Shown: positions 4,355 to 27,299, counted from the stretch's first letter. The stretch is DNA of 50,045 nucleotides from Pseudomonadota bacterium (GCA_043825735.1 JBDRRP010000058.1:1-50045), one strand, 5' to 3'. Notes: a model not told the origin generated them from the sequence alone. Made by a program: numbers and translations.

Positions 4355-4440
4355 TTTCTCCAGCTAAATAGAAGAATACCCTCAATTTTCGACGGCAATC
4401 GGCCTCACGCGATGGAGGCACTCGGAAGGAGCCCTTAAAC

Positions 4441-4902: not shown

Positions 4903-4954
4903 CGTGAAAGGCTCGGCCACAGACCGGTCGCGACACCGCCGGCAAGCAGTGCTC

Positions 4955-5443: not shown

Positions 5444-5816
5444 GGGTGATGGGGGCTTTACCCTCCTGGAAACCCTGATCGCGCTGGCGATTCTCGCCAT
5501 CGCCCTGGTGGCCTTATTCCGCCTTCACTATCAGTCCATCGATCTGAGCGCAGAAATCGCATTCAACGCCAACGCACCTTTTCTGGCCGGTCAGTTGCTC
5601 AGCGATGTGGAACGCGCGGGCCTTGACGGGGCGGGACGCCATGCCGGCACCTTTCAAGAGGGCCTTCCGCCGTACTCATGGCAAGTCGACATCGCCCAGG
5701 TGGAGCTGCCCGTGGGAGAGGCAACACCGCCGAAACTCTGGAAAATCGATATCGACATCGCTTCCGGAGAACGGCTGAACTACCACCTGACCACTTTTCG
5801 TCGATACCGGGAGTAA
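5409..5816 (+). CDS. gspI: T2SS minor pseudopilin I
   Basis: G/FTLLETLIALAIL prepilin motif, YSW motif, operon position. Confidence 0.82.
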   Translation: MRQKYLKIDPAEGDGGFTLLETLIALAILAIALVALFRLHYQSIDLSAEIAFNANAPFLAGQLLSDVERAGLDGAGRHAGTFQEGLPPYSWQVDIAQVELPVGEATPPKLWKIDIDIASGERLNYHLTTFRRYRE

Positions 5817-5820
5817 CGCG

Positions 5821-7657: not shown

Positions 7658-7760
7658 ACAGCCTAACCATCATCTCCCGGCACACCAACGGGCGGCGGCA
7701 TGTTGCGACGCCTGCGGCCCCCTTCCAACCCCGCCCTTTCTGGTTTCACCCGGTTGGGGT

Positions 7761-7789
7761 TTGCAAAAATCTGAAAAATAACATATAAA
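7761..7789 (+). promoter_or_regulatory. Putative internal sigma70 promoter upstream of gspL
   Basis: TTGCAA-N17-TATAAA in the AT-rich 210-bp gap between gspK and gspL. Confidence 0.5.
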
Positions 7790-7868
7790 AAATGCAATAT
7801 TATTAAATGCCTATACCACTGCACCGGCTGGCATTACCATCTGCCGGTGCACAGGGGCGACGGTCTTT

Positions 7869-9314: not shown

Positions 9315-9835
9315 TTCAGGTCAGTCGGCGGGAGAAGATGGCCATCGGCATTGGGGCAATCGCCCTGGCCTGTTTTCTTTTTGTGGAATGGGTGGCCTTT
9401 CCCATCTATGACAAGCAAAAATCGCTGGCCGAAGCCCTCAATCGCCAGGAAGCAGAGCTGGCCGAAGCCCGGGAACTGGCTCGCCAGATTACCGAAATCC
9501 GCGAAACCATGGCTTTTTCCCAACAACGGTTGGCTTCAAAGAAATCGGGTTTCAGCCTCTTTTCGTTCCTGGACGGCCTGGCCGCGCAGGCCGGGCTGAA
9601 AGACCATATCATCTACATGAAGCCTTCGGTTTCCAAAATCAAAAACACCGAGATGGCACTGTCCATTGTCGAAATTAAACTCGAAGCCATTGCGCTCACT
9701 CAACTGGTCCAGTTTCTTCACATGATCGAGACATCTTCCGAGGAAGTCACCATTCGGCGGATGTCCCTTCTGACAGGCGGGAAAGAAAACACGTCGCTGA
9801 ACGCGGTTCTGGAAATCGCAACCATCAAGGTTTAG
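9311..9835 (+). CDS. gspM: T2SS protein M
   Basis: SRREK + TM + coiled coil, L..LVQFL..IE; overlaps the gspL stop (GTGA). Confidence 0.82.
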   Translation: MIQVSRREKMAIGIGAIALACFLFVEWVAFPIYDKQKSLAEALNRQEAELAEARELARQITEIRETMAFSQQRLASKKSGFSLFSFLDGLAAQAGLKDHIIYMKPSVSKIKNTEMALSIVEIKLEAIALTQLVQFLHMIETSSEEVTIRRMSLLTGGKENTSLNAVLEIATIKV

Positions 9836-9868
9836 GGGACGGCGCCATGTGGCGACCACCGGCTTAGG

Positions 9869-10735
9869 ATGATGACGCAGAAACGGACCAGAGCGGCGTA
9901 TGCAATCTATCTAATTGCTATAACAGTATTTTTTTTATACACTGGCTTTCCGGAAGATAAGATTCTCCAATTTGTGAACCGTGCGGGCGCAAACCCGCAG
10001 CAACCAGTCGCCGTATCGGTCCAGCAGGTGTCCCCGGCAATACCGCCGGGAATTGTTTTCAAGGGTGTCCGGCTGAGCCGCAACGACACCACGCTGCTGC
10101 AGGTAGCGCGCCTTACGCTGTCTCCCGACTATCTGGCAATGGTCACGGGAAAACCGGCACTTCGATTTCACGGGGATATTCACGGCGGCAGCGCCAGCGG
10201 CACCATCCAGGGCATCGGAAAGGATCGGCAGGAAATCCGCTTGCGGTTTGCAGCAGTGGATCTATCCCGGCTGGCGATCAACAAGGCCACTGCGCCGGAG
10301 CGGTCCGTCACCGGGCAGATGTCAGGGCAGTGCCGCATCAGCACGCAACCGGACGCCGCGGTCAGGATCGCCCTTGAAACCGTAATAACCGATACAACGG
10401 TGGGCTTGTTAATGCCCATCGGCAACATTCGATCCATTCCGTTTGACAGGATCGAGATCACTGCGTCAGTTGTGGGACGAACAGTCACCATCTCATCGTG
10501 CGTGTGGAAAGGCGCGGTGATGGCGGGCAGTCTCACCGGCACCATCGGAATGCAGGAATCGACTGGCGCCAACACAATTTCGTTGAAAGGCAATGTCATT
10601 CCGCAGCCGGCGCTGATCCAGGAATTGGGGGAACCGATGGCATCCAGACTGTTTCCCGACCATCGCCGCCGGAAGAACGGGTTTCAGATAACCTTCACCG
10701 GCACTGTCGATAAACCGGTTTTCGATATCAAATAA
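9869..10735 (+). CDS. gspN: T2SS protein N (deltaproteobacterial type)
   Basis: N-terminal TM ending FP, beta-rich body, C-terminal GT..KP motif, position after gspM. Confidence 0.75.
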   Translation: MMTQKRTRAAYAIYLIAITVFFLYTGFPEDKILQFVNRAGANPQQPVAVSVQQVSPAIPPGIVFKGVRLSRNDTTLLQVARLTLSPDYLAMVTGKPALRFHGDIHGGSASGTIQGIGKDRQEIRLRFAAVDLSRLAINKATAPERSVTGQMSGQCRISTQPDAAVRIALETVITDTTVGLLMPIGNIRSIPFDRIEITASVVGRTVTISSCVWKGAVMAGSLTGTIGMQESTGANTISLKGNVIPQPALIQELGEPMASRLFPDHRRRKNGFQITFTGTVDKPVFDIK

Positions 10736-10741
10736 AACGCA

Positions 10742-11650
10742 ATGACGGCCGGCAATCCTACTGGCGCCCGAATCATGATACCCATTCGCCCAGCAATCCA
10801 TATACTGAACGTCGTGCTGCTCACGGTATTGGCATATACCGGCGTCAAAACAGTTTACGACATCAGCGTCCGAAAACTCCCGACGCCCGTGCAACGGCCA
10901 GCCGATGCCGCAGCTATCCAAACGGAATCTGGCGCCGCAAAGAACCCGCTGCCCTATTACCAGGTCATATCCCGGCGCAATCTTTTCGGTGCCGGTGCCG
11001 ATACAAAAACATCACCGCCGCCGGCTGCGGCGCTGCAAAACTTGGAACCCACAAAACTAAAACTCAAGCTGTGGGGAACCATCACTCATCGGGGCGGGAA
11101 AGAATACGCGGTCATCGAAACCCTGAAAGACCGGAACCAGGACCTGTACAAGGCCGGTGACACGGTGGAAGGGGCGCTCGTCAAACAGGTGCTCAGGGAA
11201 AAAATCGTCCTGACGGTTGCCGGCCGGGATGAAATTCTTCAAATGGCAGAAAGCGTCATCAGCGCACCATCGGCCACTCCAGGGGCCGCGTCGGCGCCGC
11301 CCCTGGAAAGCGCTGGCTTGGAGCCCCAGCATCAACAGGTCCCCATCAGCCGCGAAGACGTCCGGAAAGCCTCCGAAAATATTCAGGAACTCATGCGCCA
11401 GGTGCGCATCCGCCCTCATTTCGAACAGGGTAAACCCGCGGGGTTGATGCTCTCCGGCGTACAACCCGAGTCCTTGTTTACCCGGATGGGGCTCCAATCG
11501 GGTGACGTTTTGAGAAGTATCGACGGCAGCCCCATCCGATCCATGAACGATGTACTGAAACTCTATGAGCAGCTCGGCTCAGCCGATGCCCTGGAGATCG
11601 AAGTCAAACGGGGGGGCAGCCTGCTCAACATTCAATATGGTATCGAATAA
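10742..11650 (+). CDS. gspC: T2SS protein C with PDZ domain
   Basis: TM, ISRRNLFG, LKL.GT..., Q.LY..GD, C-terminal PDZ (GLQSGDV..SIDG). Confidence 0.9.
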   Translation: MTAGNPTGARIMIPIRPAIHILNVVLLTVLAYTGVKTVYDISVRKLPTPVQRPADAAAIQTESGAAKNPLPYYQVISRRNLFGAGADTKTSPPPAAALQNLEPTKLKLKLWGTITHRGGKEYAVIETLKDRNQDLYKAGDTVEGALVKQVLREKIVLTVAGRDEILQMAESVISAPSATPGAASAPPLESAGLEPQHQQVPISREDVRKASENIQELMRQVRIRPHFEQGKPAGLMLSGVQPESLFTRMGLQSGDVLRSIDGSPIRSMNDVLKLYEQLGSADALEIEVKRGGSLLNIQYGIE

Positions 11651-11705
11651 CCGGCCGTATGCCTTGCCGGCGGTTTTTTAAAAACGACAACAAAGGGGTA
11701 TTGCG

Positions 11706-13754
11706 GTGTCTTCGCTCACTGGCTGGATTTACCACCATTTGAAACAATCGATTTATGCGGCATTGCCGACCGGCCGCCTTTTTCTGGGATTCGCCTTTCT
11801 GCTGGCGTGCCTCTACGGGGGCACGGCCGGGGCAGGCCTTGCGCTTTCAGCGGAAAACGCCGAGGCGGACAAGTATGTCACCATCGACTTCAACGATGTC
11901 GATATTGCTGTTTTCATCAAATACATATCCGAGCTGACCGGCAAAAACTTTGTCGTTGACCAGCGGGTGAAGGGCAAGGTGACCATCATTTCACCGTCCA
12001 AAATCTCAGTCGCCGAGGCCTACAAGGTATTCGAGTCGGTTTTGGAGGTCCACGGATTCAGCACGGTGGATGCCGGAGAAATCACCAAAGTCATCCCCAT
12101 GCCGGATGCCCGATCCAAGAATATCGAGACCAAACTGCGCACCGAGGCCAAAAACCCGGATGACTCTGTGGTCACGCAGCTGATACCGCTGAAATATGCC
12201 AACCCTGACGAGATCAAGGCGCTGTTTGCCCCGCTGATATCAAAAAACAGCGTCATGCTGTCCTATGCCCCCACCAACATGCTCATTGTGACCGACGTCT
12301 ATTCCAACATCCTGCGGCTGATGAAAATCCTGACGGCCATCGACATCTCCGGTATGGGGCAGGAGATATCGGTCATCCCTGTGCAAAATGCCGATGCCGA
12401 AAAGATCGTCAAGCTGCTGGCCACGGTTTTCAAGCCCCAAGTCCAAGGAAAGAAAAAGGGTACCGCAGACGACGCCATCACCGTCGTCGCAGATGATCGC
12501 ACCAACTACATCGTCCTGATGGCCAGCCAGATAGAATCCGAAAGAGTGCGTGATCTGATTCAGATGCTCGACAAGGAACTGCCGCGGGGCAAGGAAAATT
12601 TCCATGTCCGCTACCTGGAGCACGCCACGGCCGAAGACCTGGCCAAAGTGATCCAGGCGCTGCCCACCACGGGCACCGCAGACGAAAAAGGGGGAAAAAC
12701 GACGACCCCGGCGGTCTCCGACAAGGTAAAAATCACCCCCGACAAAGCCACCAACAGCCTGATCATCATGGCCGATAAAGAAGAATTTCAGATCCTGGAG
12801 GGCATCATCGCCAAACTCGACATCCCCCGGGCCATGGTCTACATCGAATCGCTCATCATCGAGGTCAATGTGGACAAGGACTTCCAGTTAGGCGCCGAAT
12901 GGGCCGTCGGCGGCGAAGGCGCTTACGGGAACAAACGGATCGGCTATGGCGGTGGTAGTGGCAACGGGGGCGCCATAAACAATGTCATCCTTGGCGGCGA
13001 TGCCACCAAAGGGTTTACCTTTCCCAGCGGCATGGCATTAGGCGTATTCGGTGAAGGGATTACCATTGGTTCTGTCTTTTTCCCCAGCATCGCCGCGGTG
13101 GTAAAAGCCTTCCAGCAAGACAAGGACGTTCACATCCTGTCGACTCCGCAGATTCTGACCACAGACAATGAGGAGGCGAGCATCTCCGTGGGGAAAAACG
13201 TTCCGTTTCAAACCAGCACGAGTTTTAGCACGACCACCACGACCGGTAGCTTCGAGTATAAGGACGTGGGAATTATGTTGAAGATCACCCCCCAGATCTC
13301 CAAGGATCGTATGGTCCGCCTGAAGATCGAGCAGGAATCCACTAAGATCGACGAACTGGCCACCAAGGATCTGACCACTGACAACCGGGTCACTCCCACG
13401 ACATTTAAACGCACCGTCCAGACGACGGTAATCGTCAAAGATAACAACACGGTGGTCATTGGCGGCCTCATCGACGATAGCTTTACCAACACCGTCACCA
13501 AGGTGCCGTGCCTGGGCGATGTGCCCATTGTCGGGTGGGCGTTCCGCAGCGAAAGCAACTCCGGCGAAAAAACCAACCTGTTCATATTCATCACCCCGCG
13601 GGTCATCCAGTCACCAACTGAAGCCACTGCGGTGTTCGAGCAAAAAAAAGATGCGATGAAAGAAATCGAAGGTGGCAGAATCAAGATGTACATGCCCCGC
13701 TCGGGAAACTCCGTGCCCGTCCCCGAAACGATACTGCCCCCGGCAACCAACTGA
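11706..13754 (+). CDS. gspD: T2SS secretin D
   Basis: N0 (VTIDFNDVDI), N1-N3 repeats, LD.PRAMV.IE, STPQILTTDNEEA.I.VG..VP, VP.LGDVP..G..FR. Confidence 0.96.
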   Translation: MSSLTGWIYHHLKQSIYAALPTGRLFLGFAFLLACLYGGTAGAGLALSAENAEADKYVTIDFNDVDIAVFIKYISELTGKNFVVDQRVKGKVTIISPSKISVAEAYKVFESVLEVHGFSTVDAGEITKVIPMPDARSKNIETKLRTEAKNPDDSVVTQLIPLKYANPDEIKALFAPLISKNSVMLSYAPTNMLIVTDVYSNILRLMKILTAIDISGMGQEISVIPVQNADAEKIVKLLATVFKPQVQGKKKGTADDAITVVADDRTNYIVLMASQIESERVRDLIQMLDKELPRGKENFHVRYLEHATAEDLAKVIQALPTTGTADEKGGKTTTPAVSDKVKITPDKATNSLIIMADKEEFQILEGIIAKLDIPRAMVYIESLIIEVNVDKDFQLGAEWAVGGEGAYGNKRIGYGGGSGNGGAINNVILGGDATKGFTFPSGMALGVFGEGITIGSVFFPSIAAVVKAFQQDKDVHILSTPQILTTDNEEASISVGKNVPFQTSTSFSTTTTTGSFEYKDVGIMLKITPQISKDRMVRLKIEQESTKIDELATKDLTTDNRVTPTTFKRTVQTTVIVKDNNTVVIGGLIDDSFTNTVTKVPCLGDVPIVGWAFRSESNSGEKTNLFIFITPRVIQSPTEATAVFEQKKDAMKEIEGGRIKMYMPRSGNSVPVPETILPPATN

Positions 13755-13768
13755 GGAAACGCGCGCGC

Positions 13769-15529
13769 ATGTTTGCCGACTTGATCGACACCATCGGGCA
13801 GGATTACGACATCTCTACCGAGAGCCTGGAAGAGGCGCGCCGTCTGCTGCGAAATGAGTCCTGCAGCGCCGCCGAAGCGCTGCTGCGAAAAAAAATCGTG
13901 TCCGAAACGCAGTTGCTTCAGTCTCTCAGCCGGCGCTATCATCTTTCCTTTCAGCCCACCCTGTCGCTGGACAATATCACCGGAGCCTTCACCGACCAGA
14001 TCCCCATCCAGTTTCTCAAACGCCACCTCATCGTGCCACTGCGACGAAAAGTTGAAAACACGGACAAAACAGACCCCGCGGCAGCGGCGACAGATAGTGA
14101 CACCGCACGCGAGGCATCGGCGCCGGAATGGGTCATCGCCATAAACGACCCCGGAAGCGCCCATGCCATAGACGACCTGACCCGCATCATCGGTGCAACC
14201 GACCCGGAAATCGTATTCTCCACCCGGGAGTCGATCCTGTCGGCCATCAACATCTCATACGACTTCAGCAGAGGCTCGGCCGAGCAACTGGTCCAGGATA
14301 TGGAAGATGACGGGGCGATGATTATCACTGACATGGACAACCCGGCCGACCTGCTGGATGACACCAGTGATGCGCCCATTATCAAACTGGTCAACCACAT
14401 TCTCTCCGAGTCCATCAAGGCCAGAGCCAGCGATATCCACTTTGAACCCTACCAGGACGGGTTCAAAGTCCGCTACCGGGTTGACGGCATTCTCTACGAT
14501 CTGCTGTCGCCCCCGAAGTGGATCCAGCAGTCCGTGATCTCACGCATCAAGGTCATGGCCAAACTCAACATCGCTGAAAAACGTTTGCCCCAGGACGGCC
14601 GCATCGAGGTGAAGGTGGGCGATCAGGAAATCGACATCCGGGTATCCACGCTGCCCACCTCCTTTGGCGAACGCGTGGTGCTGCGCCTGCTCAACAAGAC
14701 CGCCTCGCTGGTGAATGTGACCGATCTCGGTCTCACCCAGTCCCGATTCAAACAGCTCTCCGCCCTGGTGACATCGCCAAACGGAATCATCCTGGTCACA
14801 GGCCCCACCGGCAGCGGGAAGACCACCAGCCTGTATGCGATCCTCTCATCGATCAAGACGCCCGAAATCAACATCATCACCATCGAGGACCCCGTCGAGT
14901 ACCAGCTCAAGGGGATCAGCCAGATCCAGGTCAACCCCAAAATCGATCTCACCTTTGCCCGTGGACTGCGCTCTATCGTTCGGCAGGATCCGGATGTCAT
15001 CCTCGTAGGGGAGATCCGCGACAAGGAGACCGCCGATATCGCCGTGCAGTCGGCACTCACCGGACACCTGGTGTTTTCGACCCTGCATACCAATGATTCA
15101 GCCAGTGCCATCACCCGTCTGGTGGATATCGGGGTGGAGCCCTTTCTCATTTCCTCAGCGGTGGTGGCGGTGATCGCTCAGCGCCTGGTGCGTGTCCTGT
15201 GCCATGAATGCCGCACCGTCGCCGAACCGGACCTGGTGATTCTGGCCGGACTGGGGATAACCGATGATGCCATTCAGGGCCGCACCTTCTACAAGCCCCA
15301 GGGATGCGATGCGTGTTTTCACTCCGGTTTCAAGGGCCGGATCGGCATCTTCGAAATCATGGAGATGAACAGCCCGATGAAAAGCCTCGTTCTTAAGACT
15401 TATGACGCCAACCGAATCAAGGAAGCGGCCGTAAAACACGGTATGACCACACTGCGCCAGGACGGTTTGGACAAGGTCCTGCAAGGCATCACGACCCTTG
15501 AGGAAGTGCTGCGGGCCACGCAGAAATAG
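13769..15529 (+). CDS. gspE: T2SS assembly ATPase E
   Basis: ASDIHFEP, Walker A GPTGSGKTT, TIEDPVE, RQDPDVILVGEIRD, CxxC...CxxC Zn motif. Confidence 0.96.
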   Translation: MFADLIDTIGQDYDISTESLEEARRLLRNESCSAAEALLRKKIVSETQLLQSLSRRYHLSFQPTLSLDNITGAFTDQIPIQFLKRHLIVPLRRKVENTDKTDPAAAATDSDTAREASAPEWVIAINDPGSAHAIDDLTRIIGATDPEIVFSTRESILSAINISYDFSRGSAEQLVQDMEDDGAMIITDMDNPADLLDDTSDAPIIKLVNHILSESIKARASDIHFEPYQDGFKVRYRVDGILYDLLSPPKWIQQSVISRIKVMAKLNIAEKRLPQDGRIEVKVGDQEIDIRVSTLPTSFGERVVLRLLNKTASLVNVTDLGLTQSRFKQLSALVTSPNGIILVTGPTGSGKTTSLYAILSSIKTPEINIITIEDPVEYQLKGISQIQVNPKIDLTFARGLRSIVRQDPDVILVGEIRDKETADIAVQSALTGHLVFSTLHTNDSASAITRLVDIGVEPFLISSAVVAVIAQRLVRVLCHECRTVAEPDLVILAGLGITDDAIQGRTFYKPQGCDACFHSGFKGRIGIFEIMEMNSPMKSLVLKTYDANRIKEAAVKHGMTTLRQDGLDKVLQGITTLEEVLRATQK

Positions 15530-18101: not shown

Positions 18102-18139
18102 AAAAAAGGGCGGGCGGCTTCACAGCCACCCGCCCTTTT
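18102..18139. terminator. Bidirectional rho-independent terminator
   Basis: AAAAAAGGGCGGG.GGCT-loop-AGCC.CCCGCCCTTTT between the convergent toxin and large surface-protein genes. Confidence 0.85.
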
Positions 18140-18153
18140 GTATTGGTAATGGG

Positions 18154-21100
18154 TTATTTACGTCTTCTCCGGATCAGTGCGAACAAGAGCGGCATCATTG
18201 CAACCAGCATAATCAGGAGCACTGACCGATCGGCACCCACGGCAGGCATCTGAAGGCCGTCGGTGGCGGTGCTGATGAAACACCCGCCGCCGCCCCCACC
18301 ACCGCTGGCGCCGCCACCCGAGGAAGAGACGACAACGCCGATCCCAAAGGCGGAAAGGTGGTCAACCCAGAAGGTCACCACACCGTTGGTGTAGTCCACC
18401 GGCGGGATGATCTGGCTGGGCGACAGGGCCGTGTAGTTGCCCGCCGCCATGTCCACCATGGAACTGGCCTGGTAGACAATAAAGGTCCCGTTTTCCAAAG
18501 AGCCTTCGGTGACCACCGCCGGGTCGAACGTAATGGTGATCTCGAATCGTTGGAGATTGGCGTTGTCAACGTTGCCACCGTCTTCATCGATCATGGTGAT
18601 TCCGCTGATTGCCGACCCGGTGATCCCGGTAGCGCCGGCAACGCCGGCATTGGCTTCCACGATGGCGATGGTCACCGTGTCGAGGATGTCGCCACTCAAG
18701 CCTCCCGGTGGGAGATTGACCTGGGTGTTGGGCGTACCGGCAGGAGCCGTGCTGCCGGAAAGGTTGGGATCCGTAATGGTGACAGTACCGTAAGCGCGTT
18801 GCGACTTGACATATTCAGCCAGTCGTGTGGCCCGGTATCCCGCCGCCACATCATGCAAAGTTTCACTGACGTCGGCCTGCACCGTAAACCGGAAGTTTTC
18901 ATAGACGGGATGGGTAAACGTCCAGGCATTGCCAGCCACGTCATAGATCATCAACACCGGTGACCCGTCAGACATCGTCACTTTGGCTTCCGCGGCGGTA
19001 TTGTTGAAACGGTAGGGCACACTTCCCGCCTGGGCGGTAACAGTGCATTCCACGCTGTCGGCAACGCCATCGCCCGTCACATCGGCGCCCTCTGTGCACG
19101 CAGTGGTGATAATGGTCGTCGGATCGAGGGTGATGCCGCCAGCGGTAAGCAGCGGCCATGGAGGTGAACTGTTGGTGACAGTCATCGTCCTGCTGATGTA
19201 GCCGGGTTTGACCGCTTCAACGGTGAAGGTCGTTGCCGTGGCAAAGCTCGACGGAATCTGGAATGTGTAGTTCCCGTTGTTTGTTGTCATGACGATGATC
19301 GCAACACCGGTGTCATCGGTGATGTAAACGCCATCGGCCTTCACCTTAATGAGGGTTTTAGGCGCATTGCCGCTGGTCGCTCCCCCAAGATCTACCAAAT
19401 CCCGGAGATTGACGTCACCGGTAATGGTGCCGCCACCGATGGCACTCTGAAGCACGATGGCTGTGCCAGGTTCTGTAGCGGAAGGAGATGGACCGACTGC
19501 CGTGGTTTTGACAAGATTAGCGCTGGAAATGATTTTGTCCAGATAGTTGGTAACCGAAACGATGAACTGGTATGGGATACCCACATCGGCAAGCGGGCCG
19601 ATAGTGAAAGTCCCGTCAGCGCCGATCGCGGTCGTAACGGCCGGATCATGCAGTGCTGTAATTTTTGCAACGGCAGGAGCTGGAAGGGACCCAACAACCG
19701 GTGTCACTCCGTCGGCCTGCACCACTGTACCGGAGTATTTGACCATCGGTGCGATGCGCAAAATCCAGGTCGTGACGCTGCCGAGACCTGCATCGATGAG
19801 TCGGCTGACGTCCGAATTGCTGCCTGCCTGCGTCGCGTCGAGCGATGCCGTGACCCTGAAGGAAATTGGTGCAGGAATGCCTTTGGTCACAGTGAACGCG
19901 TTGGTGTTATCCGTGGGCGACCCGTCAGCGAATGTACCCGCAGCTGCCGTTGTCACCGCCGTCCCGTTGAGGTCTTTCGCATCCCAGTTGAACACCGTTG
20001 CCACGAGGGGGGCGGTATCGTGCGTTTTGACGGTAAATACGACGGGCACGGCGATGCCGTCATTCAGGTTGTTGCTGGCCTGGTCGTGGCTGATTTTCAT
20101 ACCGACCCGCAGGTAGTAGGTGCTGGTAAGGTGCGGTCTGTCGTGATCCTTCACCGTGACCTTGTACACGCCGGCCCCGCTCGCGGCAAAAAGCCCATCG
20201 GGGTTTACGGCATAAGAAACCGTTCCGGTGTTGTCGCTGGCGCGCTCAATACCGTTCCAGTCGGTCACGGACCAATCGTATCGCCTTGCACTATCGGCAG
20301 CCCGGAGTGTCGTGGTCTGCCCAAAGGCAAGCAGCGGATAGGTTAGTGGTTTGCCGTTGACGTAACCCGCCCACCGGTTGCTCAATGTAATGGCAGGATA
20401 CACCGTAACGATGGCCTCGCCCTTGACCGGTGTCGCGTGGGCGCTGTTGAACATGGCATCGTAGGCGGCCACGGTCACTTGCTGGGTGCCGCTGCCAACT
20501 ACCGGTGCAGTGAAAACACCGGCAGCGGTGATGGTTCCCGCACTGGCCGTCCAGTTATACGCACCGGTCCCGCCGGTGGCTGAAAATGTCAGCGATCCTG
20601 AGGAACTCACGCTGCCCGTTGCCGTGACGGTGATGGGCGTCACCACGGTAATCGTGTTTGAGCGGGTGCTGTCCAACCGGATATCTTGGACCTGGACGCG
20701 GATAGTGCCTGGTTTCAGGGCGGTAAATACCGCCTTGGTGTCATCGACGGTTTCCGCCACACTGCCCACCGTGTCGCCCGGCGTGGCCGGAGCGTCTTCC
20801 ACCACGGTCCAGACATTGCCGCCATAGGCAGAATAGCCACCGGCGGCGGTAAATGTATGGGTGCCGCCCACTGCGAGTCCAACGGTACCTGTCGGTGTCA
20901 CTGCCAGCGGTGAGGCCGGGACACCGTCATCGGTGGCCGGATCATACCCTGCCAGGCCGGGCGGGTCATCGGCATTCGGGTTGGTCCCGTTGAGATATTC
21001 CTGAAGGTTGGAATAACCGTCCCGATCGGCATCCAGTCCGGCGTCGCTCACCCCGTACAGCGCTTCCCAGTAATCCGGCATGCCGTCGCTGTCATTATCG

Positions 21101-22146
21101 GGATTGACCAGCGAGAAATCCCTGGCGACGCCGTCCGGACCGTTGGCGATGGTTATAACCGGCGAGGCATAAGCGCCGCTGGCTTCCGCGGCCTCCTGAG
21201 AGGCATTGCTATTGCTGTCGATGTAAGCGGCCAGTGTGTAGGTGCCGTTGGGAATCCCTGATACTGCATATGTTTTACTATTATCCCCGGCGGCCCAAGT
21301 GATCTGCTGGGTACCAATGGGATTGGCATGGGCCGTATCGGTAGTATGGAATGCCGACACAGACAACGTACCGCTCTGGGGACCGTTATAGGCAATCGTA
21401 CCTGAAATGGCATTGGCGCCGACAACGGTCAGTGTCGACGAAGTGACGGTCGAAAAGGGTGCGCCCGCGTTGCCGAGAAGGACGGGAAAGGCCTTGGTGA
21501 GATCGCCAAAAACGCCATCAGTGCTGGGCAGGGCGCCCACCAGTACGGGCACCGGGTCCATGGTATCGCTGCCGGGGTCATAGATGCCGTTGCTGTTGGC
21601 GTCAGTGCCGTAGCCGGCGGCCGGATTGAAAAGCATGGTCTGCGATAGCGCGAAGGTGAAAGCGCTGCCGGTAGCGGCTCCGGCTTTCACGGCAAACTTG
21701 ATGGTGAAAAGAACGGTGTCGGCCCCTGACGTATACAAAGACCCGCCGGTGGTCTCGTTGATGGCGGCGCCGCTCAGATAGATCTTGCCGGCGGTGGTGC
21801 CATTGGCTCGAAAGGTATCGCTGTCAGGATTCGTCCCCTGGTAGGTAAACGGGAAAATCGATGAAATGTCCCCGGCCGACAGCGGCAGACCGTCGGCGCC
21901 AAGGGCCGGTGGGGTCAGCAGCGTCGCATCGTAGGTGAGGGTGAACGCCGCCCCGGCGATGCCGGCAGGGTCATCCACGCGAATGTTCAGATATAAAAAA
22001 TCACCCTGGGTATAGGTCGTTGCCACTGTGGCGCCGTCGCTGGTGGGTTCCAGCGACAGCGTTGCGGCGTGTGCCATGCTCAGCGGCGCCAGCATCACCA
22101 TCATCAGGGCGAGCACGATGAACACTCGGGATGGATATGATTTCAT
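18154..22146 (-). CDS. Large secreted/surface protein: cohesin domain, Ca-binding TSP3-like repeat, Ig-like repeats, CFI-box C-terminal sorting signal
   Basis: Signal peptide ending AHA; cohesin pattern (GD...V.I.VD....IAGA.FTLTYD...L); DNDSDGMPDYWE...DADRDGYSNLQEY..GTNP; Thr/Val/Gly-rich beta repeats; tail GGGGGGCFISTA + TM + RRRRK. Alternative GTG start at 22161. Confidence 0.8.
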   Translation of the reverse strand: MKSYPSRVFIVLALMMVMLAPLSMAHAATLSLEPTSDGATVATTYTQGDFLYLNIRVDDPAGIAGAAFTLTYDATLLTPPALGADGLPLSAGDISSIFPFTYQGTNPDSDTFRANGTTAGKIYLSGAAINETTGGSLYTSGADTVLFTIKFAVKAGAATGSAFTFALSQTMLFNPAAGYGTDANSNGIYDPGSDTMDPVPVLVGALPSTDGVFGDLTKAFPVLLGNAGAPFSTVTSSTLTVVGANAISGTIAYNGPQSGTLSVSAFHTTDTAHANPIGTQQITWAAGDNSKTYAVSGIPNGTYTLAAYIDSNSNASQEAAEASGAYASPVITIANGPDGVARDFSLVNPDNDSDGMPDYWEALYGVSDAGLDADRDGYSNLQEYLNGTNPNADDPPGLAGYDPATDDGVPASPLAVTPTGTVGLAVGGTHTFTAAGGYSAYGGNVWTVVEDAPATPGDTVGSVAETVDDTKAVFTALKPGTIRVQVQDIRLDSTRSNTITVVTPITVTATGSVSSSGSLTFSATGGTGAYNWTASAGTITAAGVFTAPVVGSGTQQVTVAAYDAMFNSAHATPVKGEAIVTVYPAITLSNRWAGYVNGKPLTYPLLAFGQTTTLRAADSARRYDWSVTDWNGIERASDNTGTVSYAVNPDGLFAASGAGVYKVTVKDHDRPHLTSTYYLRVGMKISHDQASNNLNDGIAVPVVFTVKTHDTAPLVATVFNWDAKDLNGTAVTTAAAGTFADGSPTDNTNAFTVTKGIPAPISFRVTASLDATQAGSNSDVSRLIDAGLGSVTTWILRIAPMVKYSGTVVQADGVTPVVGSLPAPAVAKITALHDPAVTTAIGADGTFTIGPLADVGIPYQFIVSVTNYLDKIISSANLVKTTAVGPSPSATEPGTAIVLQSAIGGGTITGDVNLRDLVDLGGATSGNAPKTLIKVKADGVYITDDTGVAIIVMTTNNGNYTFQIPSSFATATTFTVEAVKPGYISRTMTVTNSSPPWPLLTAGGITLDPTTIITTACTEGADVTGDGVADSVECTVTAQAGSVPYRFNNTAAEAKVTMSDGSPVLMIYDVAGNAWTFTHPVYENFRFTVQADVSETLHDVAAGYRATRLAEYVKSQRAYGTVTITDPNLSGSTAPAGTPNTQVNLPPGGLSGDILDTVTIAIVEANAGVAGATGITGSAISGITMIDEDGGNVDNANLQRFEITITFDPAVVTEGSLENGTFIVYQASSMVDMAAGNYTALSPSQIIPPVDYTNGVVTFWVDHLSAFGIGVVVSSSGGGASGGGGGGGCFISTATDGLQMPAVGADRSVLLIMLVAMMPLLFALIRRRRK

Positions 22147-22182
22147 TTCGTATGTCTCCACTGAGAATGACGTAATCGATGC

Positions 22183-22317
22183 TGATGACCATGTAAAAAG
22201 TCTGAAATCACCACAGAGGACACAGAGAGCGCAGAGATAACTTACTAATTATTCAGTAATTTCTCTGCGGTTCTCTGCGGTCTCTGTGGTTCAAAATCAC
22301 TTTTTACGGTTTTATCA
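22183..22317. repeat. MITE-like palindromic element (family A)
   Basis: Ends TGATGACCATGTAAAAAGT / ACTTTTTACGGTTTTATCA, internal CACAGAG 9-mer arms. A closely similar copy is at 33495-33620. Confidence 0.85.
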
Positions 22318-22529
22318 ATGCTGCCGATTAATCGAAGGTCATTTCTCCGAGATGTTGTCGCGGTGCGTAAATATCACGCGTTTCCCGAATGGCGTTGATG
22401 GGGATTACCCCTTCTTTTGCCGTTTCGGGTTTTCTGCGCCCTGGGTTCAGGCGCGCCAAGGCGTCGGCGCTACCGACGACCCGGCGCCCAATAACGCCAA
22501 GCCGCTCCTGGGCCCGAAAGCCCGGTAAT

Positions 22530-22946
22530 TTACGCAATCTTGGGCGGCGGTGTGGGAGGGGATGGATCTAAAGGGCAAAAGGCGGTTGAGGCGGCCCGCA
22601 GGTGCTGTTGGATCAAAACCGGTGGCGGGGATGGCATATAGGCCAGCAGCCCTATCGGTAACGATGAGGACGGTGCCGCGAGATCACCCGTGGCGTCAGC
22701 CTTGATGACGGTCTTCAGATTGGCGGCCACCTCGATGGCGGTCACCGCGGTACGAAAATGATTTTGCAGTGAAGCTGGGTCTTTGGCACCACTGGCGACC
22801 TCATGCATCGCCATGATGGCGTCGCGCAGGTCGATGCTGCCGTCACGGTGCAGATCTGCCGGGTGGTGGTATGGCATCGTTGCTGCCATCAAGGCAGCGA
22901 CCAGCAACACCCGTAATGTAATTTTAAGACCCTTCATGATGACCAT
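22530..22946 (-). CDS. Small exported protein with one dockerin-like Ca-binding motif and a Pro-rich C-terminus
   Basis: Signal-like N-terminus, ADLHRDGSIDLRDAIMAM (D.N.DG.ID..DA), ends DPSPPTPPPKIA. Confidence 0.7.
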   Translation of the reverse strand: MVIMKGLKITLRVLLVAALMAATMPYHHPADLHRDGSIDLRDAIMAMHEVASGAKDPASLQNHFRTAVTAIEVAANLKTVIKADATGDLAAPSSSLPIGLLAYMPSPPPVLIQQHLRAASTAFCPLDPSPPTPPPKIA

Positions 22947-23019
22947 TTTCCGCTATAGATTCGACCCATTTTCATTATCGGCCGATTTTGCAACCCGCAT
23001 GAGCGCTGACAGTTTCCAC

Positions 23020-23049
23020 ACTATATATGCACCCGGAGCAACCTGTCAA
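23020..23049 (-). promoter_or_regulatory. Putative sigma70 promoter for the small dockerin-like gene
   Basis: Minus strand TTGACA-N18-TATAGT. Confidence 0.45.
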
Positions 23050-23173
23050 GCGTACCGCAATTGCCGCTGCCAATGACTTCTCACATATTTTCAAAGCGTT
23101 GTGGCTGACATGCCTCTCTAAAAAATGACCGCCGCCAGTGTCGTAAGCCGTGGATGGGCGCTCAATAATTTTT

Positions 23174-23878
23174 TCACCCACGGTGATCGCCAGTGGGTAC
23201 GCACTCTCTGAGCGCAACCCTGTCAAGAATGCAGATGGTCTTACCCCTCATGGTGATCAACCCGGCCTTTTTGAGCTCTCCAAGCTCTTTATTGATGCTT
23301 TCCCGGGTGGCTCCGACCATCTCCGCCAGTTCCTTCTGGGTCAGGGGGATTTGGATGTCGATCACCTCCCCTGCTTCGTCGCCCACGCCGAATGCGTCGG
23401 ATAGTTCCACCAGTTTTTTGGCCAGCCGCTCTGAAATATTGAGAAAGCACTTGTCCTCGAGCAGTGTGTCGGTTCTTCGCAGTCGGCGTGACAGTGTCGA
23501 CAGAATGGTCTCCATGGCCGTTTCGTTTGAGCGCAAAAAATCGATAAAATCCCGCCGGCTGATGGCCAGCAGCTCGGAATCTCTCACTGCGATGGCATCC
23601 GCCGACCGTGGCTCTCGATCCAGCAGGGCCATCTCTCCCAGAAAATCACCCTCGGAAAAGATACAAACGATCATCTCGCCGCCCTGCGGCGACGGGAGCA
23701 CTATTTTAATCGCGCCTTTCTGGACAATGAAAAGCCTGCCGCCTTCGGCACCCTTTCTAAAGAGCACATCGCCTTTGGCCAGTGTCACCCGCTGCAGCTT
23801 CGGCAGAAGCTCGGCAATGCACTCACGTGTCATTCCCTGAAAAAGCGGGACGGGCGTCAAAAAGCTGGTTAGTTCCAT
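23174..23878 (-). CDS. Crp/Fnr family transcriptional regulator
   Basis: cNMP-binding motif GDFLGEMALLD..PRSADA; HTH LTQKELAEMVGATRESINKEL; GAGG RBS before ATG 23878. Confidence 0.93.
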   Translation of the reverse strand: MELTSFLTPVPLFQGMTRECIAELLPKLQRVTLAKGDVLFRKGAEGGRLFIVQKGAIKIVLPSPQGGEMIVCIFSEGDFLGEMALLDREPRSADAIAVRDSELLAISRRDFIDFLRSNETAMETILSTLSRRLRRTDTLLEDKCFLNISERLAKKLVELSDAFGVGDEAGEVIDIQIPLTQKELAEMVGATRESINKELGELKKAGLITMRGKTICILDRVALRECVPTGDHRG

Positions 23879-23892
23879 TCCACCTCGCTGTC

Positions 23893-24062
23893 GATGAATC
23901 CGTATTAAAGCGATTTTCTCGCTAAGGCGCAACGTGCGCCAAGAAAAACATCTTCAATATTAGCTCATTAGCTTTGCGATCGTTGCCCTTCGACTTCGCT
24001 CAGGGCCGTGAGCCTGTCGAACGGCGCCTTTGGGAGAGATCCCGACCTTTTACGGATCCATA
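23893..24062. repeat. Palindromic element with a nested REP-like insert
   Basis: Homologous to 15620-15715 but carries an extra CCCTTCGACTTCGCTCAGGGCCGTGAGCCTGTCGAACGG (23986-24024) splitting its right arm. Confidence 0.8.
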
Positions 24063-24568
24063 ATTTTTGATGATACAGCAGCTCCCGCGGGCGCTGTTGG
24101 AAAAATCGCCACTCTAAACGGTTTGGTGTCGTGTTTGATATTTTTCAGCTCGGCACTCATGAGTTGGCTCTCGACAATGCGCAACTCGGTCTGGATTGCC
24201 TTTTTTATCTCGACCGAAGTGGTGAAACGGAACTCGAACACGGTAATCTTTTTCCCGCCAATGCCCCGGGCACCGGCCATGACCAGGACCAGGCGACCGG
24301 GCTGCCGGTCATTGACGATGTACATAAAAGTGGTGGCCAAAGGGGTTTTTGCACCTCCGGCATAGGTCAGCACCGTTTCATCGAAAACAATGACCAGTTT
24401 CAAACCGGCCAGATTGTCCAAGTCATCGATCATGACCGGAACGGTAATTGTCTCGCCGGATCTTACCGACACATCCGGTGAATAGACGGTCACTGCGAGA
24501 CCCGCTGAAGGCCTCAGCGAAAATAGCAGCGCGCAAATCAGTATGAGCCTATAGATTCTTTTCGTCAT
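24050..24568 (-). CDS. Secreted stand-alone cohesin-domain protein
   Basis: Signal peptide, then GETITVPVMIDD...LAG..L.I.FD..VL.Y, ...PG.L.L..A, the classic cohesin beta-sandwich pattern. Confidence 0.8.
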   Translation of the reverse strand: MTKRIYRLILICALLFSLRPSAGLAVTVYSPDVSVRSGETITVPVMIDDLDNLAGLKLVIVFDETVLTYAGGAKTPLATTFMYIVNDRQPGRLVLVMAGARGIGGKKITVFEFRFTTSVEIKKAIQTELRIVESQLMSAELKNIKHDTKPFRVAIFPTAPAGAAVSSKIMDP

Positions 24569-24681
24569 TCAGCGCCCGACGGATGGTATCGGTGGCGATC
24601 GGCCCTTTTTAGCGCCCTGTAATCATTATATAAGTGTTGACCAACAATCAAGGCTCAATCAAAAGGGCCGAAAGGCGCTTG

Positions 24682-25017
24682 TCAGTTGATCTTGTCACGG
24701 TCAATGGGCGGGGCGGCCGCACCGCTGGCGTGGCGGTGCTGTTCTACCTGCCGCTGAAGCGCCTGGATCAAACCGGGAAGAATCTGAAAAGGAATGGCAA
24801 TTTCAGCCACCACCGGAACTTTGTGCTCTCCGCCGCTGGCCGCCAGGTTAGCGACGTTATCAATGGGTCCCACGTCACAAAACCGCAAAGTGAAATCGTA
24901 CGGAGAATGCGCCACTTCGACATAATTGGAATAGAGCCGCTTCACGGGCAGGCTCGCGTCCGCTCTGAGTTTGAGCTCTACCACCATTTCCTTATTCGTG
25001 ATCGTCTGATTTGTCAT
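24682..25017 (-). CDS. DUF3467-like small protein
   Basis: LYSN...V.HS.YDF.L.F...P......V.I.P...L...L. Start ATG 25017 (or 24987). The longer ORF-track extension runs over a toxin remnant and a MITE. Confidence 0.7.
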   Translation of the reverse strand: MTNQTITNKEMVVELKLRADASLPVKRLYSNYVEVAHSPYDFTLRFCDVGPIDNVANLAASGGEHKVPVVAEIAIPFQILPGLIQALQRQVEQHRHASGAAAPPIDRDKIN

Positions 25018-25041
25018 CTCATATCCCTTATTGCTTGACCC

Positions 25042-25174
25042 ACTATCGCCGTCGACAATCCCAAAGCCGCCGTCGACATGGCGCAACGGGTTTGGAGCGC
25101 CGTCGCCCTTTTGTCCAAGCAGCCCGACTTGGGGCGCCCCGGCCGTGTTATTGGAACCCGTGAACTTATAGCAG
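25042..25174 (+). pseudogene. Internal fragment of a RelE/ParE toxin
   Basis: Reads TIAVDNPKAAVDMAQRVWSAVALLSKQPDLGRPGRVIGTRELI. In-frame TGA just upstream (25036), and the 3' part is replaced by a MITE half. Confidence 0.75.
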
Positions 25175-25244
25175 GCTATTCCTCCGGTTTCGAAAATGCT
25201 CAAGCCTTGCTCTGAACCAAAATCTACCATTTCTGGATGGACAC
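25175..25244. mobile_element. Half copy of MITE-like element (family B)
   Basis: 69/70 identical to the reverse complement of 45266-45335. Confidence 0.88.
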
Positions 25245-25255
25245 GTGTTAACGCT

Positions 25256-25349
25256 TCTCCGCGCCCCGGCGCCTCTGCGCGAGAAATTTCTTCGCTTTTC
25301 TTTGCGCTCTTTGCGCCTTTGCGAGAGACATTGGGTTTTCGCCTTTTCT
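25256..25349. repeat. 9-mer-arm repeats downstream of the subtilase
   Basis: TCTCCGCGCCCCGGCGCCTCTGCGCGAGA, then TTTGCGCTCTTTGCGCCTTTGCGAGAGACATTGGGTTTTCGCC; the latter recurs at about 30260 and 31090. Confidence 0.8.
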
Positions 25350-25364
25350 ATAATCTGACATCCG

Positions 25365-27299
25365 TCATCTGATCTCTGCCACCCGCTGCAGGATGTTGAT
25401 GGCATCGGCGGTGCCCAGGCGCCCGTCCCCGTCGGGATCGGTGCCGGCGGCAAAACAGGTTTCACAAAATTCGGGTGTGCCGGCGGCAATCACCTGCAAG
25501 GCAATAATGACATCAGCCAGATCAACACCGGCATCGCAGTTCACGTCACCCGGGATGGCAGCAGCCAGACACAGCGCGTTTCCGATATTGAGCCGTCCGC
25601 CGGTAACCGTCTTTCCCTGGGCGGCAGATATCGGATCGACACTGTCAAAAATCGCTGCCTTGACTTGCGCAGCGGTCAATCCGGGCTTCTTAGACCACAG
25701 CAGGGCAATCGCGCCCGATACCTGAGGAGCGGCCATGGAAGTGCCGCTTTTATAGCCATAACCGCCGGCGGATACCGGCAGCGTTGATCGTATGTCCGAT
25801 CCCGGAGCCAAGAGATCGACGCTTTGAGCGCCGAAATCGGAGTACAGTGCCAGCGCATCCTGCCGGGTACTGGCACCGACGGAGAAAATGTTGTCCAGGT
25901 TATAAGCTGCCGGATAAAGGGGAAAACTGTCGGCATCAATGCCTGCCGGCGATTCGTTGCCGGCGGCGCAGACGGCAACCGTGCCGGCCGCACCCAGTGC
26001 CGCCAGTCGATTGTATTCGATCTGGCTGTATCCGGACCCGCCGAAACTGCAGTTGACGATGCGCGCGCCCATGCTTTGGGCATAGATCAACGCGGCGATG
26101 ATCGCCGTGCCGTCCAAGAAGCTCTGGCCGTTTCGTTGCACCTTGAGCGCCATCAATTTTGAATGCCAGCTCACTCCCGCCACACCGACCCCGTTGTTGC
26201 CGACGGCGGCCGCGATACCGGCCACATGGGTACCGTGCCCGAATGTATCCATGGGCAGAGCGTCATTATCGGCAAAATCCCAGCCGTAAATGTCGTCGAT
26301 ATAACCGTTGGCGTCGTCATCCACCCCAGAAGAGCCGTTCAGCTCTGCGGCGTTCCGGTAACGATTGGCAGCGATGTCCGGATGGGTGTAGTCGATCCCC
26401 GTATCCACAACGGCAATAAGAACATCGGGGCTACCCTGGCTGAACTGCCAGGCTTTTTCAGCGCTCATAACCGCCGGCGCCCACTGATCCGAATACAACG
26501 GATCGTCCGGGGTAACTGACGGGTATCTCAGCACATGCCTTTCGGCAATTTCCACGAGACCGGAGGCGTAAAAGGCACGCACCGCAGTCAGTTCGGGCAT
26601 TCCCGGCGGCACCTTTACCGTCGCCAGACGTGCGGCGGACAGCCAGGAGAGCAACTTGCCACCGAGAGCATCGACCAGGGTGTCTACCTTTTCTCGCGGC
26701 ACCGCCGGTTTAAACTGCACCAGGACTTCCCCGGGTTTATAGAGCAAACGCCCCTGAGAATCGGTTGGCGAAACAAGGTTCCCACCGCCCACCGCCGCCA
26801 CCGGAATCGAAAGGGGTTCTCGGGGTATTTTTTGTGAGAGACCTGCGTCAGATGACGATGATTCAGCATTATTTGATGGTATATCGACACGATTATGACG
26901 TGAATCACTCGAATTAAACCCCTGGACATCAACGATCCGGTACCGCCCGGTTTTGGGCTCATAAGCAAAAACAAGGGCCGTATTTTCGAGCAGCCGTGCG
27001 AGCACTTCTTCCACGGTGGCATGGGTCACCGACAGGGTGGCCCGCCCCTCCAGTGCCCTTCCAGTACCGAGAGAGGCACCGGAAATACAGGCGATTTCAT
27101 TCAGTATTTCAAGGCGTTCGGCATTGTTGGCCCAAAGACTGAAAGTATCCCCGGTCATCTCGATGCGCCAGGACGAATCCGCAGCCGCAGCGACATCCGG
27201 TGTTTGAGCGCGCCCCTGCCCCCCGCTCACCGGCTGAAGGCCGGCAGCGAGCATGAATAAACAGGCAGCCACGATGTGTCGTATCAAAAGCATCCGCAT
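25365..27299 (-). CDS. S8 subtilisin-like serine peptidase with STN/N0-like N-domain, propeptide and C-terminal dockerin
   Basis: Catalytic motifs VVDTG, GHGTHVAG, AAGN, GTSMAAP; PGEVLVQFK propeptide; duplicated dockerin motif GDVNCDAGVDLADVI..LQ / DPDGDGRLGTADAI..LQ; signal peptide. Confidence 0.9.
   Translation of the reverse strand: MRMLLIRHIVAACLFMLAAGLQPVSGGQGRAQTPDVAAAADSSWRIEMTGDTFSLWANNAERLEILNEIACISGASLGTGRALEGRATLSVTHATVEEVLARLLENTALVFAYEPKTGRYRIVDVQGFNSSDSRHNRVDIPSNNAESSSSDAGLSQKIPREPLSIPVAAVGGGNLVSPTDSQGRLLYKPGEVLVQFKPAVPREKVDTLVDALGGKLLSWLSAARLATVKVPPGMPELTAVRAFYASGLVEIAERHVLRYPSVTPDDPLYSDQWAPAVMSAEKAWQFSQGSPDVLIAVVDTGIDYTHPDIAANRYRNAAELNGSSGVDDDANGYIDDIYGWDFADNDALPMDTFGHGTHVAGIAAAVGNNGVGVAGVSWHSKLMALKVQRNGQSFLDGTAIIAALIYAQSMGARIVNCSFGGSGYSQIEYNRLAALGAAGTVAVCAAGNESPAGIDADSFPLYPAAYNLDNIFSVGASTRQDALALYSDFGAQSVDLLAPGSDIRSTLPVSAGGYGYKSGTSMAAPQVSGAIALLWSKKPGLTAAQVKAAIFDSVDPISAAQGKTVTGGRLNIGNALCLAAAIPGDVNCDAGVDLADVIIALQVIAAGTPEFCETCFAAGTDPDGDGRLGTADAINILQRVAEIR

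Follow-up and report, generated by a model that had tools for sequence, protein, structure and literature searches.

In cellulosomes, a multi-cohesin scaffoldin is combined with glycoside hydrolases that carry dockerins. Non-cellulosomal complexes have also been proposed; according to the accessible parts of the two articles, the 'Planctosome' (PMC6461901) and the complex of Ca. Stygibacter (PMC8542988) hold dockerin-bearing peptidases on an anchored cohesin protein, and those of Ca. Stygibacter are S8 and C25 peptidases. Adhesins of syntrophic sulfate reducers (PMC10553843) come from the same phylum as the system examined here and have the same module types, with S8 domains noted. The accessible part of that article gives presence and expression only, with no single-copy cohesin, no link to a type II secretion system (T2SS), no ZU5 domain and no leader. 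As far as these partly accessible sources go, cohesin-dockerin genes of sulfate reducers and peptidase-bearing non-cellulosomal complexes are already in print (PMC10553843; PMC6461901; PMC8542988). Here we describe a cohesin-dockerin gene cluster in a 50,045-nucleotide stretch of DNA (the window; GCA_043825735.1 JBDRRP010000058.1:1-50045) from a bacterium listed under Pseudomonadota. An original prediction, made from the sequence, had described positions 18154-27299 as four co-oriented genes of a candidate surface protease complex next to a T2SS: an anchored protein with an N-terminal cohesin (which we call the stalk protein), a stand-alone cohesin, an S8 peptidase with a dockerin, and a small open reading frame (ORF). 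All four were found, together with intervening genes, on the minus strand.

The locus resembles cellulosomal type I pairs (5nrk, 4dh2/OlpC, 2ccl, 3l8q) in the two-calcium-loop dockerin fold, the cohesin profile and the excess of dockerins over cohesins. It differs from cellulosomes in its Gram-negative host and in that the constant partner is one soluble cohesin rather than an anchored scaffoldin, and this genome (G000; other G numbers denote other genomes, L numbers loci and P numbers proteins) has two single-cohesin proteins in place of a multi-cohesin scaffoldin. The Planctosome and the Ca. Stygibacter complex are, in the accessible text, from other phyla with other anchors, whereas the present system has one cohesin per stalk, a CFI tail, a candidate self-cleavage domain and a soluble core cohesin. 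In a search that most subscription papers lay outside, we found no literature report of a single-copy T2SS-linked cohesin, a ZU5-CFI stalk or a dockerin leader. The reading to which we give about an even chance is that the dockerin is a tag, that the stand-alone cohesin is a soluble periplasmic receptor or chaperone tied to the T2SS, that a self-cleaving stalk is an optional addition, and that the small ORF encodes a half-dockerin leader that tunes stalk synthesis.

Both cohesins predicted from the sequence passed the Pfam Cohesin PF00963 cut-off of 24.1, the stand-alone protein with 30.1 bits and the stalk protein with 25.2 bits, and these are the only two matches in the genome. A profile of the stand-alone family found cohesins in 24 of 25 PDB matches, a profile of the stalk cohesin found cohesins or scaffoldins in 13 of 13 PDB chains (best E 2.9e-4), and hhalign related the two at 95.8%; profiles rather than predicted structures carry the assignment of both proteins. 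We surveyed 151 genomes of the order with completeness of at least 90%, G000 included. The stand-alone cohesin occurs in 28 of them, as one copy in 27, and dockerins occur in 36, leaving 115 with neither module. All 28 cohesin genomes have dockerins, as do 20 of 20 among genomes used for neither profile, and every genome with at least 8 dockerins has the stand-alone cohesin. Eight genomes have 1-7 dockerins and lack it; the other 28 dockerin genomes all have it. The Fisher p of 1.3e-23 for this co-occurrence is overstated because related genomes are not independent. Dockerin counts run from 1 to at least 40 per genome, and up to 96 in a separate survey of relatives. Among 40 relatives, cohesins were found in 10 genomes and dockerins in the same 10 plus one with a weak match.

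In a Pfam check of 10 dockerin-rich genomes of our own choosing, the soluble cohesin was the only cohesin found in five, with dockerin:cohesin ratios of 32:1, 17:1, 11:1, 9:1 and 8:1; PF00963 misses divergent cohesins such as P0012, so that '32:1' may undercount cohesins. The other five had 3-25 cohesin matches. We conclude that the stand-alone cohesin, which the original prediction had treated as ancillary, is the core and most constant element of the system. Many dockerins to one cohesin points to a receptor or chaperone that serves a dockerin tag; if CTERM systems are taken as the analogy, a single constant partner shared by many tagged proteins would be what a sorting tag and its handler look like. 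The family also occurs in the cultured species Desulfatibacillum alkenivorans (L087) and Desulfonema magnum (L111). There is an LptC-like gene near the stand-alone cohesin in 8 of 68 loci (for example L116:4005-4787, L068, L082, L089, L094, L106 and L124). Dockerin-rich relatives also contain cohesin-plus-dockerin and multi-cohesin proteins that resemble adaptor scaffoldins, as judged from match coordinates (L033:7874-10039; G007:C56, G026:C74, G034:C876, G034:C793).

The S8 domain of the peptidase scored 184 bits in Pfam and has the D/H/N/S motifs. Its tail had been predicted to be a duplicated dockerin. Dockerin_1 PF00404 had no match in the full-length window proteins or in the genome, and the isolated tail domain scored 13.3 bits against a cut-off of 22.9; 25 of 30 members of its family match PF00404 at E<=0.1 and four neighbouring members pass the cut-off. 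An AlphaFold2 model of the tail (predicted local distance difference test, pLDDT, 87.7) contains helices at 16-26, 35-39 and 52-62. In a VIA structure search the top 14 matches were cohesin-dockerin entries (Z 7.2-3.6; first other entry 3.1), the best with Z 7.2 and a root-mean-square deviation (rmsd) of 2.5 over 62 aligned residues. This Z is modest, and the dockerin call takes its weight from the fact that all of the top 14 are dockerin entries. Foldseek agreed with a dockerin, with no match at E<=0.001, and in a sequence profile of the tail EF-hand proteins score equally well. Alignment and model show two calcium loops with a helix after each, arranged as in dockerins and not as in EF-hands. 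As modelled, the S8 tail has a dockerin fold, though it lies below the Pfam cut-off. DARPin matches of a six-sequence dockerin profile were artefacts that disappeared with 30 sequences.

Across the family the dockerin is C-terminal in 39 of 53 cases, and the cargo comprises S8, C1, C10, C13, M10, C25, Lcl and beta-helix proteins, with much that is immunoglobulin (Ig)-like or adhesin-like. G000 has two dockerin proteins, neither with the glycoside hydrolase that the original prediction had also failed to see: the S8 peptidase and a 3351-amino-acid protein on contig C121 (L161:4982-15034) with DUF11 repeats, an internal dockerin and a C25 peptidase. Relatives of this DUF11/C25 protein lie directly before an S8-stalk pair in L139-L144, L146, L147 and L163, and the cluster therefore seems to be split in G000. 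The N-terminus of the S8 peptidase carries a weak STN/secretin-N0-like domain (about 26960-27060). Such a domain recurs on S8 peptidases and in a stand-alone gene of about 270 amino acids behind the small ORF (L138:710-1525, L151:788-1357, L076:10457-11896); one may speculate that it mimics secretin N0 for T2SS recruitment.

Selection of cargo by the T2SS is a long-standing open question, and our literature search for a T2SS or sorting role of cohesin-dockerin modules returned none by title or start of abstract. In the window, the T2SS operon lies 2.6 kb from the stalk gene, as the original prediction stated, and 8.5 kb from the stand-alone cohesin. It is on the opposite strand and convergent with the cluster, from which YidD-like, TPR and Phd/ParE genes separate it, and contig C107 carries a second full T2SS. 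Across loci, at least two gsp genes accompany the stand-alone cohesin in 12 of 68 loci, far above the background of 94 of 6802 positions (1.4%) in G000, and in five loci the start of the cohesin gene and the stop of gspE or gspD overlap. On a quick tree in which 31 of 66 forks are open, the T2SS-linked label, given to the 12 multi-gsp loci, two single-gene cases and the window, changes nine times, with at least three changes forced. Computationally, linkage of the stand-alone cohesin to T2SS genes is shown in some lineages. The YidD-like and TPR genes (15853-17219) follow gspE, as they do in L089, where they adjoin a cohesin gene. Genome G013 (L032, G013:C123) has a split stalk gene and no match for dockerin, soluble cohesin or GspD N0, possibly through decay following T2SS loss, or because the assembly is incomplete.

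The stalk protein has 18 homologues at E<=1e-114 that have the C-terminal part in common and vary in their N-termini. Near its C-terminus there is a ZU5/GAIN-fold domain that the original prediction overlooked. The model (pLDDT 87.1) best matches the ZU5 domain of ankyrin (Z 10.6, rmsd 3.2, 138 aligned), followed by CD97 GAIN (Z 9.3), and Foldseek returned BAI3 GAIN at E 5.4e-4; a ZU5 profile found no sequence match in the PDB, and the ESM Atlas had no usable match for the stalk. In the turn that precedes its final strand the domain has an H-L-S motif in which, across the homologue alignment, H and L are invariant and the third residue is S or T in 18 of 18 rows. In MAIN domains, an HX(S/T) motif in the last turn self-cleaves, and one tested example is a cellulosome-anchoring cohesin protein (bioRxiv 10.64898/2026.05.12.724683, accessible text). 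MAIN proteins share with the stalk the fold, the motif and the order signal-adhesion domains-MAIN-anchor (bioRxiv 10.64898/2026.05.12.724683). They differ in being described mainly with anchors of the sortase, wall-binding or SLH kind and as an equivalent of autotransporters in Gram-positives; the words 'CTERM' and 'desulfo' are absent from the main text of the preprint, and its supplementary tables may list such proteins. Because motif and position are those of MAIN domains shown to self-cleave, the modelled stalk domain is a candidate for self-cleavage and is probably self-cleaving. An earlier paper by Liao et al. (2014) reportedly dealt with bacterial ZU5 domains. The Asp-rich DxDxDG repeat of the stalk, which we take to be TSP3-like, matched no dockerin profile and was rejected as a dockerin.

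The anchor predicted for the stalk has the expected Cys motif, transmembrane (TM) helix and basic end, with C1289, F1290 and R1326 invariant in 19 of 19 stalk sequences. The tail scored 13.5 bits against NF041763 of NCBIfam (cut-off 15.9) and did not match NF041770, which four of six scanned homologues, with the long form, pass; it is a short form that falls under the CFI-box-CTERM cut-offs. Cys-type CTERM tails (MYXO-CTERM, GlyGly-CTERM) need the T2SS to reach the surface, according to the accessible text of two sources (PMC11980579; 10.1101/2023.06.07.544157), and have in common with the window tail a Gly linker, the invariant Cys, a TM helix and a basic end; 'CFI' is absent from the accessible text of 10.1101/2023.06.07.544157. 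A second CFI-box protein on contig C158 (L165:118-9252) is 3045 amino acids long, with beta-helix and Ig domains and the sequence LLDHMSSF before its tail, and probably carries another ZU5/MAIN domain. There is also a recurring run of genes, in L135, L138, L148, L149, L108, L114 and L067 with not all five genes everywhere, that consists of the small ORF, the STN-like gene, a cohesin/CarboxypepD protein of about 1000 amino acids, a protein of about 510 amino acids with no Pfam match, and a CFI stalk. The window stalk looks like a condensed form that bears the cohesin of the protein of about 1000 amino acids.

The stalk ZU5 domain occurs in 15 of the 151 genomes, including 12 of the 36 with dockerins, and the stalk cohesin type in 21, of which 20 have dockerins. 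Genome G001, of the same genus, has neither. We conclude that the anchored stalk is an optional part of the system. The original prediction had made the CFI-anchored protein the whole scaffold, on which the S8 peptidase docks, with the free cohesin a secreted cap or decoy outside export; we consider this rather unlikely as a full account. Its docking step is best supported by 8 of 20 metagenome stalk loci, seemingly from one close lineage with the S8 gene split in one, that have an S8-dockerin gene directly upstream of the anchored protein, and by G087, which has the same order, two dockerins and an anchored cohesin without a soluble one. Two-loop dockerin genes occur in 12 of these 20 loci, which came from an alignment-based scan where a single-sequence scan found none, and the restriction of stalk-type cohesins to dockerin genomes in 20 of 21 cases also fits. 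Against it, 16 of 36 dockerin genomes have no stalk-type cohesin and 24 of 36 no stalk ZU5 domain, genomes with 8-32 dockerins show the soluble cohesin alone, and the single-copy retention, the gsp stop overlaps and the leader family are left unexplained. The scaffold is partly supported, as one part of the picture, and we keep the soluble cohesin as the centre of the system.

In the small ORF, where the original prediction had noticed one dockerin-like loop, hhalign matches a single calcium loop and two helices to the dockerin profile (96.9%); the second loop, and with it the duplicated loop of dockerins, is missing, and its family has the anatomy of an arrest leader rather than of cargo. Its family occurs in 18 of the 151 genomes, all with dockerins and 17 with the soluble cohesin, and forms 409 clusters at 50% identity. 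In the best 150 of these 409, on which the motif counts are based, PP is present in 144, PPP in 131 and Ser at -10 in 129; the spacer, of about 57 residues, measures 52-59 in 139 of 144, and the stop codon follows PP by 2-6 residues in 126. The end motif is (Y/F)xSxxxxPxxPPP(R/K/E/Q), a few residues from the stop. Mean identity is lowest in the spacer (16.5%) and reaches 34% in the dockerin-like part and 45.8% in the tail. PPP within the last 16 residues is found in 20 of 4290 long ORFs in G000. Nine further complete copies, which are not in the alignment, likewise have PP at the end, and in eight of them the spacer is the same. The penultimate Pro is encoded by CCT in 18 of 23 loci against a background of about 20% (a set without two near-duplicates, two truncated copies and one that lacks PP), and this codon creates CCUCC, the complement of GGAGG, an anti-Shine-Dalgarno (anti-SD) sequence. 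In 11 of 13 regions, one of the next two genes downstream encodes a stalk-type cohesin. By sequence, then, the family has arrest-peptide anatomy. A few members (P0121, P0147, L029:11187-11597, P0071) have RYG or FRGG in place of PPP at a similar distance, possibly a second arrest motif.

The closest described leader is CutF, which stalls on PEPEGPPPRL and thereby opens a hairpin that covers the next gene's ribosome-binding site (10.1101/2025.02.05.636593, accessible text). CutF/CruR (DUF2946) and SecM-type leaders have in common with the small ORF a signal sequence, a periplasmic sensor, a PxxPPPR-like end and a position upstream of an envelope gene; here the sensor is a half-dockerin rather than a Cys/His metal site and the targets are cohesin-stalk genes. 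CzcI-like clusters returned by the ESM Atlas for the small ORF (0.83) were left unused, since chance reaches that score in 1/3 of cases. We think it unlikely that the small ORF is instead an inner-membrane-tethered half-dockerin that holds or chaperones cohesin proteins, with a non-regulatory proline tail. Such a tether would fit a conserved dockerin-like part (34%) that follows a hydrophobic N-terminus lacking an obvious cleavage site, the prediction of SD pairing in 7 of 22 folds only, and the result that 0 of 16 family members match DUF2946 at E<=1. A tether gives no reason to expect a spacer that diverges in sequence at constant length, a Ser at -10, PP near the stop or the synonymous CCT bias, and we favour the leader.

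A further possibility is that these modules are cell-cell or matrix adhesion cross-links, as has been suggested for syntrophic sulfate reducers, with the soluble cohesin a matrix component. Conserved and highly expressed cohesin and dockerin proteins in partners of anaerobic methanotrophic archaea (ANME; PMC10553843, accessible part) point in this direction, as do the Ig-like and adhesin-like cargo and the 19-25 cohesin matches of some genomes. A monovalent soluble cohesin should be unable to cross-link, and the cohesin family is also present in free-living cultured species (L087, L111). We regard adhesion as an improbable explanation of the whole and return to the soluble cohesin as a candidate receptor.

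Table 1. Features of the cohesin-dockerin cluster and its surroundings (positions in the window).
Feature	Positions	Strand	Basis or remarks
T2SS operon gspF-G-(H/I/J)-K-L-M-N-C-D-E	3128..15529	+	Pfam; convergent with cluster; gspN has no Pfam match and is named from position
Terminator-like hairpin and T-run 3' of stalk gene	18102..18139	-	read from sequence; absent from consensus-scan list
Surface stalk protein, 1330 aa from ATG	18154..22146	-	signal peptide, cohesin, Ig-like stalk, ZU5/GAIN, Gly linker, CFI-TM-basic tail
Short-form CFI sorting tail: CFI, hydrophobic helix, RRRRK	18157..18282	-	sequence
ZU5/GAIN-fold (MAIN-like) domain	18322..18810	-	model and structure matches
H-L-S, residues 1263-1265	nt 18360-18352	-	turn before last strand of ZU5/GAIN domain
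Asp-rich DxDxDG repeat	20956..21099	-	sequence; weak NF042425 stretch, aa 376-397
N-terminal cohesin of stalk type, with insertions	21412..22062	-	Pfam 25.2 bits, cut-off 24.1
Dispersed genomic repeat between small ORF and stalk gene	22182..22310	no strand	188 blastn matches, 124 over about this span
Small ORF, candidate arrest-peptide leader	22530..22946	-	hydrophobic N-terminus, half-dockerin, spacer, PxxPPPK end
Sigma-70-like promoter match TTGACA-18-TATAGT, 11/12	23020..23049	-	about 75 nt upstream of small ORF
Crp/Fnr regulator	23174..23878	-	Pfam; kept directly behind stand-alone cohesin
Stand-alone soluble cohesin	24050..24568	-	signal peptide, no anchor seen; single-copy core gene
DUF3467 gene within run	24682..25017	-	Pfam 30 bits; start codon inferred
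S8 peptidase	25365..27299	-	signal peptide, weak STN/secretin-N0-like domain, prodomain, catalytic domain, C-terminal dockerin
Two-loop dockerin of S8 peptidase	25368..25565	-	alignment and structure model

Pfam confirmed the Crp/Fnr gene that the original prediction had placed in the middle of the cluster; its gene list was incomplete, as DUF3467 also belongs to the run (Table 1). The DUF3467 gene is near the cohesin in G001 and in 1 of 68 cohesin loci only. A Crp orthologue cluster lies directly behind the cohesin in 12 of 68 loci, and Crp is therefore a genuine cluster member; 4 of 16 'crp' blast matches, to DUF4388-cNMP proteins, were dropped to give this count. CRP and FNR boxes upstream of 21 small ORFs were not above shuffled sequences. 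The promoter in the table is a consensus match only, because four such sites were found in the region against 7.4 expected. Relatives are labelled Desulfobacterales and Syntrophales, and the host is of the sulfate-reducer type. The cluster lies, like an island, between a tRNA-Arg gene (27517-27592) just upstream of the S8 gene and a Phd/ParE toxin-antitoxin pair (17382-17944) at its opposite end, and a toxin-antitoxin pair is also found near the cohesin locus of G018 (L018). Short dispersed repeats with 14-188 genomic matches occupy most intergenic spaces (15610-15710, 18005-18085, 22182-22310, 23900-23990, 25160-25340). These flanks and repeats, the mere two dockerin proteins in the genome and a deviant leader would suit a chance, decaying island of parts that no longer cooperate, which is very improbable given that all ORFs are intact with catalytic and HLS residues and that the cohesin-crp and small ORF-stalk gene orders are found again in distant genomes.

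In the reading that we favour, the locus would be the core, in compact form, of a system of Desulfobacterota that tags diverse secreted proteins with a dockerin, mostly a C-terminal one. Sec would export the tagged proteins, here the S8 peptidase and the DUF11/C25 protein. We infer that, in the periplasm, the single soluble cohesin would then bind the calcium-loaded dockerin, act as receptor or chaperone and probably hand the cargo to the T2SS. Where stalk proteins with a cohesin exist, cargo would dock on them at the surface. The stalk would be held by its Cys-containing CFI tail and, we infer from the motif, pre-cut at HL/S in the ZU5/GAIN domain, so that a loaded stalk could be shed. The small ORF would serve as a monitor whose half-dockerin is just clear of the ribosome tunnel and the Sec channel once the ribosome reaches PPP. 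Binding of cohesin to the half-dockerin, or its calcium-dependent folding, would alter stalling, and stalling would cover or free the anti-SD in the Pro codons and in this way set translation of the downstream cohesin-stalk gene.

Several observations weigh against this reading. No T2SS operon is present at 56 of 68 cohesin loci (38 of 50 where one side extends for at least 8 kb), and the window cohesin has only gspE within 10 kb, on the opposite strand. Presence of a T2SS is uninformative because GspD occurs in 149 of 151 genomes, and there was no secretin fusion of the stand-alone cohesin among 15 longer homologues. Besides the possible undercount of cohesins and the non-independence of the genomes in the co-occurrence counts, two of five checked among the eight dockerin genomes without the stand-alone cohesin had no cohesin match at all. 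The stalk ZU5 domain is found in three genomes without dockerins, and to our knowledge ankyrin ZU5, the top fold match, does not self-cleave. The profile that retrieved the 150 leader proteins itself covers the tail, and in only 7 of 22 folds do the Pro codons pair with the first SD downstream. The window small ORF keeps PPP, a spacer of about 56 residues and the aromatic residue at -12; it has no CCT codon, Pro replaces Ser at -10 and it is followed by a genomic repeat. The leader switch here may have weakened or partly decayed.

In its boldest form, which we offer tentatively as a possibility short of a probable one, the dockerin would be a portable secretion tag read by a periplasmic T2SS cargo receptor, the receptor would be monitored by a leader whose nascent half-dockerin is grabbed across the membrane and so governs stalling of the ribosome, and the cargo would be displayed on self-cleaving stalks that can be shed. 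If this is true, T2SS targeting would have a defined signal that can be transferred, and there would be an arrest peptide whose stimulus is a protein-protein interaction. With a tag of 60 residues and one receptor dedicated to it, cargo choice by the T2SS could be tested directly and perhaps put to use in engineering. The leader family would widen arrest peptides from the sensing of metal or translocon force to that of assembly partners, and with the stalk, shedding of the MAIN type would reach Gram-negative CTERM anchors. Non-cellulosomal cohesin-dockerin modules, which are mostly merely annotated, would gain a mechanism, and the 40-96 dockerin proteins of some sulfate reducers would be explained.

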